Shown: positions 3,545-54,835 of the stretch, piece after piece
Layout: the number at the start of each line of letters is the position of its first letter
Position numbering within the stretch: position 1 is the first letter of the stretch
Assembly (NCBI GenBank): GCA_964016885.1
Contig: OZ024745.1
Span: 76,260,001 to 76,324,000, forward strand
DNA: 64,000 bases
DNA from: Eledone cirrhosa
Lineage: Eukaryota
Direction: 5' to 3'
Made by a program: the position numbers and the translations under genes
Notes under the pieces: generated by a model
Seen by the model: the letters and a program-made list of their open reading frames with translations, nothing else
Told to the model about the DNA's origin: nothing
Database searches by the model: none

Positions 3545-3960
3545 ATCATCATCATCATCATCAGGTTTAGCGTCCGTGTTCCACGCTTGCATGGGTTTGG
3601 ACGGGGGTTTTCCCACTTGAGGCAAGAGTGGTTGTCTTGCTCGCATAGGACTGTCTGGCGGGTTTTCTACAGTTGGATGCCCTTCCTAACACCAACCACA
3701 TTTACAGTGTGGGGCTGGGAGGTTTTTACCGTGTTGCCTACACGGCCACATTACAGCGTGGACTGTCTGGCGGGTTTTCTACAACTGGATGCCCTTCCTA
3801 ACACCAACCACATTTACAGTGTGGGGCTGGGAGGTTTTTACCGTGTTGCTTACACGGCCACATTTACAGCGTGGACTGTGTGTTTTTTTATCGTGACACC
3901 TACACGATCTCATTTGTTTCGGCCTGGATGTTGTGGGACCAACATAACTTTACATTGAAA
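3545..3960 (-). mobile_element. SINE-like fragment with RTE-type tail and an internal ~118-bp tandem duplication
   Basis: ggactgtctggcgggttttctac...ggctgggaggtttttaccgtgttgc repeated at ~3648 and ~3760; (CAT)n end. Confidence 0.6.
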
Positions 3961-4200: not shown

Positions 4201-4257
<57 letters not shown>

Positions 4258-47173: not shown

Positions 47174-48070
47174 CTTTCGAAAGAAGAAACATTCACTGTG
47201 ACTATATTGAGGGTAGAATGTATGTTTCTGGCTGGTTGAAACCCCTAGTATTCTTGCAATAGAAGAGCCTGGTTAAGAGCCATACAGTGATGTTGCATTA
47301 CCGTATACCTTGTAACTATGTTATGCTCCCAAACACAATGTTACAGAGGACATTTAAGAACTTAGAGGTGCATCAAACAATGCTGGATGCTTTTTGTTGT
47401 GACACCTACACAACCACTTTACAGTGTGGGCTGGATGTTCTGTGGTACCAACGGAATGAGAATTTTACCTTTCTCTCTACCAAAACACTGCCACCGTATT
47501 TGCTATTAACTAAATGTGTGCACTCTGAATGGCTGATTGCAATTCAGCAGATTCATTGAGTAAGCTAGATGTTGGCCGGAGACCGTTGAATTGTTACCAG
47601 CAATCTTTGTTAATTTTATAATATATATATAAAATAGTTCTGTTCTATACATAGAGCACTCTTTTCCCCTTTGCTTTTCTTTTGGAATTATATATATATA
47701 TATGGAGGCACATGGCTTAGTGGTTAGAGCATTGGCCTTGCAATCGAAAGGTTGTGAGTTCAATTCTCAGACCGGGTGATGTGTTGTTTCTTTGAGCAAG
47801 ACACTTTATTTCACATTGCTCCAGTTTACTCAGCTGTAGAAATGAGATGATAGGGACTGGTGTCCCTATCATTCCACTGTAAAGTGGTCGTGGAGGTGCC
47901 ACGGCAAAAAAGCACCCAGCACTCACTGTAAATGAGGTTGGTGTTAGGAAGGGCATCCAGCTGTAGAAATCAAGCCAGAATCAGTTCCCGCCCCACCCTT
48001 GCAAGCAGGGAAAAGTGGACGTAAAATGATGATGATGATGATGATGATGAATATACACATGATGTATATA

Positions 48071-48464
48071 CGATGGTAATCCCAAAAGTAAGGTCTCCAA
48101 AGCGATGGGGGACGCAGAGAAACTGTTCGTATGGCTGTTGGCAACACTGTTGTGATTGGTGCTTCCTTCACTCCCAAACAAGCATGGCGCGCTTCGCTGG
48201 GATACTCAATCTTGACTTGGCAGCCGTTGAGAATGGAGCTCCCGTTGAACGCTACCTCCAAGTGCGAATTTCGCGCAGTTATTATATACGAGGGCAATCC
48301 CAAAAGTAAGGTCTCCTTCCGAGGAAAACATGCGTAAAGATCGGTGGATCACTCTGGATGTTCTCTGCATTTTGGTTCCTGAGGTTTCCCGAAGCACCAT
48401 CCACAGGATTTTAATGGAAAAGTTGCAATAGCGGAAGGAGACCTTACTTTTGGGATTGCTCTCG
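48071..48464 (+). mobile_element. Mariner remnant with a duplicated left TIR; internal MITE at 48289-48464
   Basis: TA|CGAGGGCAATCCCAAAAGTAAGGTCTCC ... GGAGACCTTACTTTTGGGATTGCTCTCG|TA; transposase start MELPLNATSKCEFRAVI and HTH remnant VSRSTIHRIL. Confidence 0.8.
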
Positions 48465-48566
48465 TATATATATATATATACATCATGATAATGATATATA
48501 TATTTGTTTCTATATACATATAACATCATCATCACTACCATTTCACGTCTATTTTCCACGCTAGCA

Positions 48567-48618
48567 TGGTGTATTTATTGACATTGGATTTTAAAATCCA
48601 ATGTCAATAAATACACCA
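48567..48618. repeat. Perfect 52-bp palindrome
   Basis: TGGTGTATTTATTGACATTGGATTTT|AAAATCCAATGTCAATAAATACACCA. Confidence 0.98.
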
Positions 48619-48624
48619 GGATTT

Positions 48625-48685
48625 TTTCATTCTGATGATTGAAAGCAAAATTTGTTTGCTTTCAAGAAACCACTGGTAAATGAAA
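48625..48685 (+). ncRNA. Minimal type-I hammerhead ribozyme (intact core)
   Basis: Stem I UUUCAUU/AAUGAAA; CUGAUGA; stem II UUGAAAGCAAA/UUUGCUUUCAA (11 bp); GAAA; stem III ACCA-C-UGGU; GUA cleavage predicted after 48678. Confidence 0.88.
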
Positions 48686-48851
48686 TAATTCCCTTATGTT
48701 GTTTATTACATAACTATTAAGCTCTGTAACCTACATAGAGCACTCTTTTTTCCTGGACCTTTCCGACAGAATTACTTCATTTAAACATAAATAATATATA
48801 TATTATATTATAATATTAAATAAATGGAAACTATATTTATAAAACCATATT

Positions 48852-48917
48852 TATTTCGTTATATATATTTCAGGGATATCATATTAACAATATGTTATGC
48901 CTTCTTCAGACAAAATA
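48852..48917 (-). ncRNA. Minimal type-I hammerhead ribozyme (left-arm copy)
   Basis: Reverse complement of 52381-52446. Confidence 0.75.
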
Positions 48918-49215
48918 CAATATAAACAGTCTTATAAATAAATAGATACGACATACCTTTCAATCACCTTGCATTTGGGAGGTTGATTTGGCAGTAAAAA
49001 ATATTGTGGACAGTTGTAAAAAAAGAAAGAAAGAGAAACGAAGAAAAAGAAGAAATGCATGTGACTAAATAGAGAGATATAGAAAGATAGATAAAGAGAA
49101 GAACTTCATGTAAAGAAACAGAGAGAAATATATATAGAGAGAGGAAAAAAGAAAAAAGAAAGAGATAGATAGAGATAGATAGAGAAACTAGGAAGTTGAG
49201 TATCGGTTGATACAT

Positions 49216-49246
<31 letters not shown>

Positions 49247-49698
49247 GCTCTAGTATTAATGTAAAGAGAGATGTATGTAGTTAAGAGAGAAAATAGCCGT
49301 TATATAGAGAGAAAAAAGAGAAAATGAAACATAACCAGACATAAACGAGGCAGAATTTAAAACCGCTATGTTTTATCCCGTAGAAAATATTAGTTCGTAT
49401 AAAACAGGCATTATAATGTAAATATCAGTATTCATGAATGAGACATGTATCTATAATGTGTGAAAAGTAATGATCTTATGTCTAGTTTTTAAAAATTCAT
49501 ATGTTTATATCATAATTATAAACAAACTCCCAATTCACACGAAAACATTCTCATTGTGCTATAAAAATTCAAGTATACATATATGTGTGTATATATACAC
49601 ATATATATAGAGTCTATATTAATTTTAACAATACTATTCTTGTCTTTACTCTACATGATTGTCGATCAAGCAGAAATAGAGAACAGATTTCAATATAT

Positions 49699-49756
49699 TA
49701 ATAAAAATAAAAATAAAAATAAAAATAAAAATAAAAATAAAAATAAAAATAAAAAT
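49699..49756 (+). repeat. (AAAAAT)n microsatellite; other simple repeats include (TA)n at 4205-4254 and (TC)n at 45671-45740
   Basis: Directly visible. Confidence 0.95.
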
Positions 49757-50417
49757 ATCAGAGACAAGAAAATAAATAAATAAACAGAAAACTAAAACAT
49801 TTAATATTAAAAATAAAAAATATTACAAAATATTAAAAAATATTAAAAAATAATAAAAATAAAACATAGTATGCCACGCAAATCGGCCACAGAGATCAGC
49901 CTTTCAAAGTTAATAGACAGTATATTGCCAAGTTCATCATAAGCATCAGAGTCGAAACAGATAAAACAAAAATTGTTTACCAAATCCTGTCTAGCAGAAA
50001 TCATTCCAAAAGTTTAGGATACCCATTTGGTCTACATATGTTCTTATATTTATATATTTAATATAGAAGTTTATCTAGTTTAAAATTTAATTCGATATAT
50101 TTGGAGCATCAGCTTTTAGGGTAGTTTAATTATTCATGAAGAATGTTTTAATAAAAAGAATGTTTTAATAAAAAGAAGAAATCGAAAGATTTATCGGCTA
50201 GTTTCATAAATAATTACAAATCAAATCAAACATAACTACATTTTAAATTTAAATTTATATTTAAACGTTGAGTTCAATCTATGTCTGCAGCAACTGAATA
50301 AATTTGTCCGTAGATTAAGGGAATTTTTAGATTTTAGTATAAAGAATATCTCCTCCGCACAGAGGTCACATGTCTTAGAGGATGAATTAAAACATTTTTA
50401 TTAAAACATTCTTCAAG

Positions 50418-52203
50418 GTGAACGGTTACCTCTCGGAGCCATTCCATATTACGCGATCCATTCGACAGGGATGCCCTCTCTCCTCCCTTCTGTACGTACT
50501 GACTCTCGAGCCACTACTGCGGAAGCTGGAGCTATTGCAGGGCATCCCTCTGGAACCGGGACTGCGGAAAGCGGCGTCGGCCTACGCCGACGACGTGACA
50601 GTAATGGTGTCGAGCGCCTCGCAAATCGAGGAAGTCGGCACCTTACTAAAGGAATACGAAAGTCTCACAGGAGCGAAGCTGAACCGGGACAAGTCCATCG
50701 GTTTGCAACTCGGATCGTGGAGAGGCAGACCGATGCCTTCCGATGGCGTCGTCGGACGCTGGACGGAAGGACCGGTAAAGCTGCTCGGGGTCTGGTTTGG
50801 TCCGGACCTCCAGGTGGAGAAGAACTGGAACGAAGTGACGGCCAAGGTGTTTGCACTCACCCAGAAGTGGGCCGAGTGCAAACTATCCTTGAAAGGTCGA
50901 GCGGAGGTGGCGAACACTTTTATAGCGTCCGCCATCTACTACCGCTTGACCGTCGTGCCTTGTCCAGCCAAAACGCTCGCCAAAATGGAGCGCGCCCTCT
51001 TCCGATTCCTTTGGAAGAGGCGGGCTCCTTTGGTAAGAAGATCCATCTGCTGCCAACACCCTTCTAACGGAGGGCTGGGGATGCCGTGGTTGACGATGCG
51101 CAAACACGCGCTCAGGCTGCGGCATCTCTACGTATTCCTCACCGGACAACCGGTGTGGGCCCCGTTCGTGAGGCGAGCCTTCCCACGACTCGTCTCGCTG
51201 ACCGAGCTGCAGTCCTGGGTCAAGCAGAGACCGAGGAAAATGGGCGACTGGCACATCGAATGTGCTCAGGCGCTCACAGCCCTCTGGCAGGCGGACCCGG
51301 CGATCAGTGGAGACTCCACTTCGTCATTCTATAGAGGGTTGGTCCGCAGCAAGTGCGACGACGCGCTCGGTGAAACTCTAGGCGTGGAGGAAGATGAACT
51401 GGCCAGTCTGTTCGGTAGGACCTTCCGCCCGGGACCGATGGACAACTTCCAAAAGTCCCTGGCCTGGCAGTGCTACCGAGGAGCTCTACCAGTTCGAGAC
51501 AAGCTCTACAGACATGGGCGCCCGGGCAGGGACCCTGCAAAAAAGATCTGTCCGAGGTGCGTGCGAGACGAAGAAACCGTCGCGCACGCATTCATACACT
51601 GCCCGGGCGTCACTGACCTGTGGGGCTATGTAGAACGACTATTGTCGCGGGTGGGACCAATCCAGTTGACCACCGAGTCCATTGTTATGATCAAACCGCC
51701 ACCCTCCTTCAAAAACGAAGGAGAGGCGGTTTTCCTTTGTGTGATAGCTATGGCGAAAGAGGTTGTATGGTGGACAAGGTTGAAAGGGCTGAGGTCAGAC
51801 ACCTTTCTCTCCGGCCAACAACTGATTCTTTTTTTCAAATACCACTTTGGAAGAAGAATCAGGATGGAGAGAGAGGTGCTGTACCCCAGCAAGTTTTATG
51901 AAAGGTGGGTGAAAGTGGCGAGAATGGCCCGAGTGAATGGGCCTTCTCTCTATATCAGCCTGTAGGTTGAGGAAAAGGAGGAGGAGAGGAAAGGAGTACA
52001 AGCTCTTCGTACTCCTGGAGATGAGGGTTGCACATTTTTTTCGGGGGTCTGTGTTACCCATATAAACTGTCTCCCTCTATTGGGGAAAATCGACTAACTT
52101 TTAAATTCCATCTGTGATAACATTTTACACGTTTTTATTGTATGTAAACTTCCCCCTTTGTATTTGTCCCCTTCTTTTGTGCCCCTGTGGCTAATAAAGA
52201 AAT
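50418..52203 (+). mobile_element. L1/Tx1-clade LINE, 5'-truncated, uninterrupted ORF2 C-terminal 515 aa
   Basis: RSIRQGCPLS, AYADDVTV, LSLKGR, GGLG, CPRC...ETVAHAFIHC; stop at 51965; 3' UTR with AATAAA at 52193-52198; GC/CpG-rich relative to flanks, so probably young. Confidence 0.92.
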
Positions 52204-52204
52204 A

Positions 52205-52576
52205 TATCTATCTTTCTATATCTCTCTATTTAGTCACATGCATTTCTTCTTTTTCTTCGTTTCTCTTTCTTTCTTTTTTTACAACTGTCCACAATATTTT
52301 TTACTGCCAAATCAACCTCCCAAATGCAAGGTGATTGAAAGGTATGTCGTATCTATTTATTTATAAGACTGTTTATATTGTATTTTGTCTGAAGAAGGCA
52401 TAACATATTGTTAATATGATATCCCTGAAATATATATAACGAAATAAATATGGTTTTATAAATATAGTTTCCATTTATTTAATATCATAAATATACTCCA
52501 AATACTTGTTGAGTGCTTTTATATCAGTTATAAATATTTACTCGTTGTTAACCCAACAATTTAAATATAACTTTCC
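52205..52576 (+). mobile_element. Inverted PLE pseudo-LTR (281-bp copy of 48813-49093 plus ~90-nt tail)
   Basis: 52205-52485 is the reverse complement of 48813-49093 with no mismatch seen by eye. Confidence 0.85.
52381..52446 (+). ncRNA. Minimal type-I hammerhead ribozyme (right-arm copy)
   Basis: Stem I UAUUUUGU/ACGAAAUA (extendable); CUGAAGA; stem II AGG.../...CCU; GAAA; palindromic stem III AUAUAUAU; AUA site after 52438. Confidence 0.75.
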
Positions 52577-52879
52577 ATATATTATATTATATATATCTAT
52601 TTTGCTTTCAATCATCAGAATGAGGGAGTGGGGTCCATATCATTCCACTGCAAAGTGGTCGTTGAGGTGCCACGGCAAAAAAGCACCCAGCACTCACTGT
52701 AAATGAGGTTGGTGTTAGGAAGGGCATCCAGCTGTAGAAATCAAGCCAGAATCAGTTCCTGTCCCACTCTTGCAAGCAGGGAAAAAGCGGACGTAAAATG
52801 AAATGATGAATGATCTATATCTTCTCTTCTTTCTCCACTTATTATATATATATCAACAATTCCAAGGAGAGTCATATAG

Positions 52880-53640
52880 TAACTACACCAAATGGAACCT
52901 GAAGAGATAACATATGCCTTCAGCTTTGATGTGATCACTCTGAACACCTCGGTTCCGGCGCTCCCGGCCGTCGAGATACTGACAGAATGTGTCCAGTGTT
53001 CTCACCTACACTGCTTCGGGCTCACCTCCACTTTCATCCACCAGCTCCTATCTGTTGTCGTTGACAACACCTATTTCGATTTTCTTGGCTGCACATACCG
53101 ACAGACCTCAAAGCTACCCATGGGTTCAAGCCTGTTGGGTGTGCTGGCGATCTTGTATATGGACAGACTGGAACGAAAGGCACTCAACACCTGTCACCCC
53201 AATGCTGGTGGCTTCTTCTCAAGATATGTGGATGACATCCTCATCCTCACGTCTTCCCGGGCGATGGCGAACGGGATTTACGAGACGTTCAAAACAATAC
53301 GGACGAGAATATTGACTTCAGCATTGAACACCCCAGTGACGATGGCTCCCTTGCCCTCCTCGCTTTCCGACTGAACATCACAAAACAGGAAGAGATCAAC
53401 ACCAACTTTTACCACAAAGCGGCCTGCAGGAACTTGTTCGTCCACTTCGAATCTGCCCTCTCTAACAGTGCAAAAAGAGGGTACATCACAAACGAGATCA
53501 CGCGAATAAGAGATAGATGCAGTGATCCCATGAGTGGTGTCACCCACACCAAACAATCCATAGGGTGTTGGAAACAAATGGATACCCAGCATCGTTTACA
53601 AACAGAATGAGGGACAAAATGGGGGACAAAAGGAAAAAAC
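52880..53640 (+). mobile_element. Penelope-like reverse transcriptase fragment (frameshifted)
   Basis: SFDVITLNTSVP, NTYFDF...YRQTSKLPMGSSL...LYMDRLE, RYVDDIL, then FSIEHP..GSL and FYHK...FVHFESA. Confidence 0.85.
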
Positions 53641-53908
53641 GGAGTCAAATATTCATGTTAATCCCCTGTAATTCAATGAGCTCAAGGGATAAGAACGGGG
53701 CTTTTCATAATCCAGTAAATAGAGAAGAAAACACAAAAGGGAATGTTTTCAATTACGAGGGGTAGAGAACCACTAGAGAGAAAATCATAATGTTTACGAA
53801 AGGAGTGGAAAATACATCATCATCATCATCATCATCGTTTAACGTGCATCTTCCACGCTTGCATGGGTTTGGACAGGGCATATTAATTAAAAGAGTAAAT
53901 CAAATGTA

Positions 53909-54094: not shown

Positions 54095-54835
54095 ATATCC
54101 ATTTTTTTAATTTGAGAGGGTGGGTCTGTTTTTTATTTGGAGGGGATCCATTTATTGGGAGAGGGGTACGTTTTTTTATTTGGGGGATCCATTCTTTATT
54201 GGGGAGGATCCATTTTTATTTGGGTGATCCATTTTTTATTTGATAGATCCAATTATTTTTGGAGGAGAGGCGTTTTTATGAGGTGGAGTTGGGTTATTGG
54301 GGGTTCCATTTTTTGGGGGAGGTGGGGGTTGGGGTTCCGTTTCATATTAGAGGGAAGGTGTCCGTTTTTTATTAGATGGGGGTTCATTTTCTATTGGAGA
54401 TGGTCCGTTTTTATTGGGGGATTCATTTTTTATTGTGGAGGAGGGTCTGTTTTGTGTTGTGGAGGGGGGGGGGGGGATACGTTTCTTATTGGGTGGTGGG
54501 GGTGTCCGTTTTTCATTAGATGGGGGTCCGTTTTTTATTGGGGATAGTCCATTTTATATTGGAGGGAGGGTCCGTTTTTTTTGGTTGGCTCCATATTTTA
54601 TTGGGTGGGGGGTGTACGTTTTATATTGGAGGTTCCACTTTTTATTGGTGGGGTGTTCGGGTGGTTCGAGGGTTTCGGAGTTCGAGGGTTCAGGTTTCGG
54701 GGAGGTTTCGTATTTGGGTCGCTCGGGTTCGGTTGGTTCCTGTTTGGGGGATTCGGATTCAGGAGTCGGTGGATTCGGGTTCGGTGGATTCGGGTTCGAG
54801 AGGTTTCGGGTTCGAGGGGTTTCGGGTTCGTACCA
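54095..54835 (+). repeat. G/T-rich degenerate minisatellite followed by a (GGGTTC)n-like tract
   Basis: Repeating TTTT(T)ATTGG(G)n.TCC units to ~54650, then GGTTCG/GGATTCG units. Confidence 0.8.

Follow-up and report, generated by a model that had tools for sequence, protein, structure and literature searches.

At positions 48798–52591 of the window, by which we mean the whole 64-kb stretch of DNA that was analyzed, a Tx1-like LINE lies exactly where the two inverted arms of a Penelope-like element (PLE) meet, as an initial annotation had pointed out, and a single target site duplication (TSD) encloses both elements. This arrangement raises the question of whether two unrelated retroelement classes were joined in one insertion event or whether the LINE arrived later. 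The structure is real, its frame is ordinary and its inner junctions are unusual. We tentatively favor the reading, at not quite even chances, that the LINE was captured in one event while the PLE insertion was still open, by the action of either enzyme. Other copies were sought in the 3.0-Gb assembly, in which the locus belongs to contig C5 (134.7 Mb).

The features of the locus are collected in Table 1. Its outline had been described correctly as a 15-nt TSD, inverted arms and a tail of about 90 nt: the 15-mer ATATATTATATTATA is exact on both sides, cannot be extended and has a copy number of two in the 64-kb window, the arms are complementary at 281 of 281 positions, and the tail measures 91 nt and closes with the TTTCC end of its family. 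The inner parts required correction. On its minus strand, the left arm does carry the PLE 3′ region and 52 codons of the endonuclease C-terminus, which match a full-length copy at 49 of 51 positions, but PLE homology stops at 50392 in all 12 copies shown and not at 50397. The short inverted filler is present as well, and its identity is PLE sense sequence: 50395–50415 is the reverse complement of 50137–50157, a source ~230 nt inside the left arm, and the filler can be read as a two-step copy of 50137–50168 with a 3-nt slip. The LINE had been called intact, yet it comprises only the 3′ 1,792 nt of a family unit of ~5,890 nt, lacking both ORF1 and the endonuclease as well as the first half of the reverse transcriptase (RT). 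Its description as a 5′-truncated ORF2 with 3′ UTR stands, with an open frame of 524 codons containing RVT_1 and zf-RVT, although it starts at 50413 instead of 50418.

Table 1. Features of the insertion in window coordinates
Feature	Position	Strand	Evidence
Left TSD copy of the PLE, 15 nt	48798–48812	.	Exact match to 52577–52591; family TSDs are 12–18 nt
Tail-less PLE arm: 3′ region and last 52 codons of the GIY-YIG endonuclease (stop 50236–50238)	48813–50392	-	95% to positions 3671–2098 of full-length copy L091
Type I hammerhead-like motif, left arm	48851–48917	-	Same sequence as the right-arm motif
Templated filler, PLE sense, from 50137–50168 in two steps	50393–50412	+	Overlaps: 7-nt ATTAAAA with the arm end, 3-nt TCA with the LINE
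5′-truncated Tx1-like LINE: 3′ part of ORF2 (stop 51963–51965) and 3′ UTR, 3′ end complete	50413–52204	+	99.9% to full-length L213 from position 4219; RVT_1, zf-RVT
TATCTATCT, common to the LINE tail/target motif and the PLE arm	52205–52213	+	Comparison with other copies
Tailed PLE arm, perfect inverted copy of 48813–49093	52205–52485	+	281/281 complementary
Type I hammerhead-like motif: core CUGAAGA at 52389, GAAA, palindromic stem III, predicted cut after AUA near 52438	52381–52447	+	91.8% of cells paired, 5/22 pairs with two-sided changes, 18 variants
PLE tail, 91 nt, right arm only	52486–52576	+	Same end in 29/29 other copies; tail-less ends at one fixed site
Right TSD copy, 15 nt	52577–52591	.	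Exact match to the left copy

Further repeats surround the insertion. To its left, 48567–48782 is the right half of a palindromic element of ~310 nt (311 nt in L303), the left arm of which is absent here. The copies of this element (L301–L314; 1,671 first-look candidates in the search) share AT-repeat flanks, a tail of 65 nt on one of the arms and, at the center, a perfect hairpin, and its stretch at 48622–48690 gives a clean type I hammerhead fold (z -2.2); it looks like a fixed non-autonomous PLE derivative. To the right, 7 nt outside the TSD and joined to a truncated SINE, 52599–52623 is a 25-nt perfect inverted copy of 48627–48651, which was probably inserted from this template when a separate break was repaired. 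Two candidates were rejected: the 25-nt inverted flank pair as MITE ends giving an empty site, the left flank being half of the palindromic hammerhead element, and the left TSD as part of the element, the matches reaching 48779 being AT runs. Farther out, 52883–53657 (+ strand) is a broken RT of another, older PLE-like family, with FDVITL, PMGS and RYVDD as what we take to be its RT motifs; 54116–54830 consists of G/T-skewed degenerate tandem repeats of ~20 and 15 nt; 48283–48470 contains a MITE-like pair of 39-nt inverted repeats separated by 110 nt, a third copy of which lies at 48062–48098; and 47713–47770 and 48020–48050 contain a tRNA-like SINE head (28 bits, under the Rfam cut-off) and SINE tails with GAT repeats, which may be related to octopus SINEs.

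Searching the assembly with the right arm gave 1,780 first-look candidates, the best 40 of which were scored, and another part of the PLE gave 2,348. In line with the earlier statement that PLE copies are often inverted and tail-out with a one-sided tail, 20 of 38 other copies possess an inverted tail-out arm in the 10-kb stretches around each, and this arm nearly always starts at one site ~90 nt inside the tail end. The tail end itself, TTTCC followed by AT repeats, is common to all 29 other fetched copies. Exact duplications of 12–18 nt accompany nine of the 19 other copies with irregular AT targets, six of the misses being tandem junctions or ATGTAT starts. Since the family shows such exact duplications at irregular targets, the 15-mer of the window is a normal TSD of this family despite its low complexity. 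Partial tandems of the PLE occur in L091, L096 and L097. The outer frame of the window insertion is ordinary for the PLE family. The two fixed start sites ~90 nt apart, the 12–18-nt TSDs and the templated fillers of this family fit a process in which both strands serve as primers and the ends are joined afterwards. According to PMC11167929, a PLE protein in purified form can cut either strand and extend it, with two starting points that bound the tail, and this activity accounts for the outer frame in the window; the same source states that later steps of PLE insertion await validation. Inverted tail-out PLE insertions described in PMC3846280, PMC8557442 and PMC11167929 likewise have an inverted 5′-truncated arm, a one-sided tail, a short TSD, an AT-rich target and an arm hammerhead, whereas their tails are given as 30–40 bp compared to ~90 nt in the window, which differs further by the LINE at its junction.

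For the coding part of the PLE, copy L166 provides an unbroken frame of 745 codons with RWR, DKT, YRDD, CxCx5C, NIIY...YVG, CxxC and CxH, which by motif reading is a single ORF with an RT followed by a GIY-YIG endonuclease; profile and structure searches with the PLE ORF (Pfam, NCBIfam, PDB) returned no match. Judged by its motifs against the published clade description, the outer element is assigned to the EN+ PLEs as Hydra-like. The family has an RWK-like motif, DKT, CxCx5C, CxxC with CxH and a (TA)n target, and CCHH is absent. The Hydra clade, as described in PMC8557442, shares RWR, DKT, the CxCx5C linker, CxxC with CxH, the (TA)n target, the hammerhead and the lack of two cysteines between GIY and YIG, whereas the family unit here, in what is a motif-based assignment, measures ~3.75 kb versus <3 kb.

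The arms had been termed hammerhead pLTRs, and a hammerhead-like motif with core and three stems is indeed found in both window arms. Across 18 variants, which were chosen for having the core and are mutually related, pairing reaches 91.8% of cells and two-sided changes affect 5 of 22 pairs, compared to at most 51% of cells and 0–2 pairs in slid controls. However, an Rfam search detected no hammerhead in the window arms, and the single-sequence fold of the motif was not better than shuffles (z -0.74). Because the variants are core-selected and related, Rfam is empty and the fold z is this low, we consider the arm motif only a likely type I hammerhead and candidate ribozyme. A palindromic helix III and dimer folding of hammerheads are described in PMC4209133.

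The junction at which the LINE resides was compared with 54 other inversion junctions of the PLE (54 chains in 79 loci, reduced to 50 by removing the window, two chains counted twice and one that spans an older copy, plus four, of which one is a possible duplicate of L088), at loci that were picked by their likeness to the window and hence lean young. The proposed check for foreign inserts at other pLTR inversion junctions gave none with a LINE among these 54. Fillers of 13–55 nt are present at seven of the 50. Their templates were traced in L070, L079 and L086, and local repeats were seen in L173, L186 (twice) and L187; in L070, 19 nt of a 22-nt filler are copied from host flank 488 nt away. 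Fillers of this kind are linked to polymerase theta. Internal sense-to-sense jumps occur in three of the 50 inverted copies (L180, L185 and L188), and L185 (5072–5771) shows the window layout minus the LINE, with a jump that comes down 22 nt away from the LINE site of the window. The PLE arms of L078 and L098 end at most 4 nt from this site, and one arm of L066 was later interrupted by 508 nt of inserted DNA flanked by a 13-nt TSD.

The inner element belongs to a family whose full-length copy L213 has ORFs of 643 and 1,150 codons with Exo_endo_phos, RVT_1 and zf-RVT, and the nearest copies differ from the window LINE by 0.12%. An ORF1, an ORF2 with APE, RT and C-terminal zinc motif, and target specificity are features of the Tx1 group (L1 clade); close homologues are without family name and distant ones are labelled TX1 or LINE-1. 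The Tx1 families Kibi and Koshi, described in PMC4494074, have the same APE-RT-zinc finger ORF2, microsatellite target and tandem arrays, but their targets are (TC)n or (TTC)n and not (TATC)n. The lack of poly(A) had been noticed correctly, but is normal for this family, which ends in AATAAAGAAATA followed by TATC repeats and the exact 22-nt 3′ motif of which occurs 3,271 times in the assembly. TATC follows the 3′ end in 27 of 30 Tx1 loci at the first 8 flank bases of the focal copy (TATATCTA-type; exceptions L034, L035 and L054), and most 5′ ends are preceded by TATC or a TSD. This fits a family targeting (TATC)n; TATC on both sides is compatible with a TSD, not proof of one. As an observation in its own right, this very young (TATC)n-specific family (G000, L031–L060, L200–L249, L315–L334) forms tandem arrays at the ends of older relatives.

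No TSD surrounds the LINE itself after comparison with family copies, as had been claimed. At the 72 other Tx1 5′ junctions that could be resolved (57 of 66 rows, tandem rows counted, and 15 of the 20 loci of a position-ordered sample), neither TATC nor a duplication was seen by eye in three (L060, L211 and L324). The initial annotation had missed that the LINE ends on what reads as the target motif of its own family: its 3′ end is complete and is followed by TATCTATCT, nine bases that serve at once as the family motif and as the native start of the right arm. The target of another copy, L221, is near-identical to that of the window LINE.

The PLE sense strand has three TATCTATCT sites. A pattern search of the assembly for a Tx1 end at the site used in the window gave one match, the window itself, and none with extra repeat units; at the other two sites, no Tx1 end was found among 50 of the 56 matches, which were fetched, and the remaining six are without a PLE string in the matched text. 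These junction patterns are exact and length-limited, so that variants can escape. A rough estimate predicts a few ordinary Tx1 insertions at the PLE TATC sites, on the basis of ~2,000 young copies (12 of 20 at ≥98%), about a tenth of them in short targets, and PLE sites as ~3% of short targets, which number ~70 per Mb in a biased sample. In junction-spanning DNA searches, the window was the sole two-part match among the best 40 scored in each (1,693 and 3,163 further candidates), and neither the patterns nor these best 40 revealed a second copy of the Tx1-to-arm junction in the assembly.

Both parts are young, as had been stated: private substitutions number 2 in 1,075 columns of the PLE arm and 2 in 1,764 of the LINE (Fisher p 0.64), and a third PLE arm substitution is common to the window and L167. 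Pooled over the other copies, arm-to-arm divergence is 125/21,737 (0.58%); the window arms have 0 differences in 228 unmasked sites, which has a probability of 0.27 at the family mean. PLE and LINE thus show no distinguishable difference in age, a weak indication that counts neither for nor against an interval between events. The suggested comparison of divergences finds the two equally young, but dating by arm identity or private changes was discarded, as it does not separate one-event and two-event models. Eleven read runs are on record; in four contig sets placed on 49880–52245, other repeat copies dominate, among the pieces listed none bridges either LINE junction, and 15 of 44 joints include no strand-change joint, so that these repeat-dominated sets are evidence neither way. 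Separately, runs X4 and X5 contain a contig joint from 50060 (PLE antisense) to 51209 (Tx1) with 22 letters on the short side, a hint of another PLE–Tx1 junction, for which a pattern search of the assembly gave 0 matches.

One event is a defensible reading because the TSD fits the PLE family, the LINE at the inversion junction has no TSD of its own and the two elements are of the same young age. The PLE protein would have cut both strands of an AT-rich target and started copying its own RNA at either end, once at the tail and once at the site ~90 nt upstream. On the tailed side, the cDNA would have stopped at TATCTATCT and paired with the (UAUC)n end of a Tx1 RNA, and synthesis would have continued for 1.8 kb along this RNA, either because the free end primed the RT of a Tx1 particle or because the PLE RT had jumped to this template; microhomology-mediated repair would then have joined the two cDNA ends, giving rise to the snap-back filler. 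Two unrelated retroelement classes may in this manner, with a likelihood just short of even, have built one insertion in which the LINE RNA was primed at a 9-nt match to its own microsatellite tail. Taken separately, priming by the LINE's own RT is unlikely, and a jump of the PLE enzyme, which corresponds to the template switch originally proposed and is one of three one-event routes, somewhat more so; the LINE RT is slightly favored on judgement. The odds of all routes rest on rough rates. Anatomy, overlaps and family habits are observed, the order of events and the enzyme inferred.

Several observations suggest capture. Absence of a TSD is rare in the LINE family (3/72), the LINE 5′ end meets a templated filler of the kind present at 7/50 other junctions, and the only Tx1 3′ end found at the three PLE TATC sites is that of the window, compared to a few expected by a rough calculation from 3,271 Tx1 ends. 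Arm ends near the site (L078, L098) and the internal jumps in 3/50 copies point the same way, matching ages do so weakly, and two-RNA L1 insertions (PMC11702581) and the two-start PLE protein (PMC11167929) provide precedents. Against capture, this is one case only, with 0/54 other junctions holding a LINE, and a single locus cannot prove a mechanism. The 3′ junction looks exactly like an ordinary Tx1 target-priming product, as the target of L221 illustrates, some Tx1 copies have no TSD, arms do receive later insertions (L066), and the few ordinary insertions expected were estimated only roughly, with a biased sample as the basis.

The sequence is equally explained if the LINE inserted later and target DNA was deleted, because the LINE 3′ end sits on its own target motif, TATCTATCT, supplied by the PLE arm. 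The inverted PLE would have inserted first and the Tx1 element would have been primed at the arm afterwards, with upstream DNA lost during 5′ joining, a course of events that we rate as nearly as likely as capture. Priming could have used the Tx1 element's own nick or a break in the long inverted repeat, and the loss would amount to 1,043 nt if the right arm had reached the filler. Long inverted repeats are fragile. The native 3′ target and the three of 72 other Tx1 copies without TSD speak for two events, and the 25-nt inverted templated piece at 52599–52623 points to another repaired break here; target deletions and templated flank DNA are known at 5′-truncated L1 ends (PMC11702581). However, three uncommon things would be needed, namely a strike at this short target, absence of a TSD and a deletion that reaches or crosses the junction, and assembly pattern searches found no TSD-flanked Tx1 at PLE TATC sites.

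A chimeric read-through RNA is improbable. Here, the Tx1 element would have inserted normally into the pLTR of a source PLE, and the PLE enzyme would have copied tail, arm and Tx1 without any switch, which would account jointly for the native Tx1 junction, the absent TSD and the junction position. Extension of PLE cDNAs into upstream pLTRs is indeed seen (L096, L160, L161, L169 and L195), and PLEs carry unrelated sequence between pLTRs according to PMC3846280, but no second copy of the junction was found in the assembly, which would require a source that has disappeared or lies on a different haplotype, and flank-carrying arms are absent from the 54 other inversion junctions. An assembly error joining two repeats is hardly credible: no listed contig piece bridges either LINE junction, but the irregular TSD of family size, the base-exact ends, the junction overlaps and the two-step filler are atypical of a misjoin, and the locus lies inside a 134.7-Mb contig.

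Capture in an open PLE insertion, which we tentatively prefer, has parallels in known systems. In L1-expressing cells, nine two-RNA insertions were described among 99 L1 and 235 pseudogene insertions, one of the nine with foreign RT sequence at the inversion junction (PMC11702581), L1 chimeras by switching or twin priming have been catalogued (PMC13174262), and L1 intermediates join other breaks (PMC13526784). Such insertions (PMC11702581, PMC13174262) resemble the window in one TSD around two RNAs, foreign cDNA at the inversion junction, and short overlaps and fillers; they involve one enzyme class, whereas in the window the frame is the work of a PLE and the inserted LINE belongs to another class. 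PLEs of Adineta vaga frame unrelated sequence between pLTRs within one TSD, but the gene described in PMC3846280 lies between two direct pLTRs, whereas the insert of the window lies at an inversion junction and begins at its own 3′ end. A literature search that covered mostly openly available papers in their main text yielded no description of a LINE located at the inversion junction of a PLE.

If the insertion was one event, two PLE cDNA ends stay free long enough to accept the cDNA of another element, which could give rise to cross-class chimeras. PLE intermediates would in that case offer their open ends to foreign cDNA, and their inversion junctions would preserve a fossil record of capture. 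The survey of the PLE family, with its start sites, TSDs and fillers, is useful on its own.
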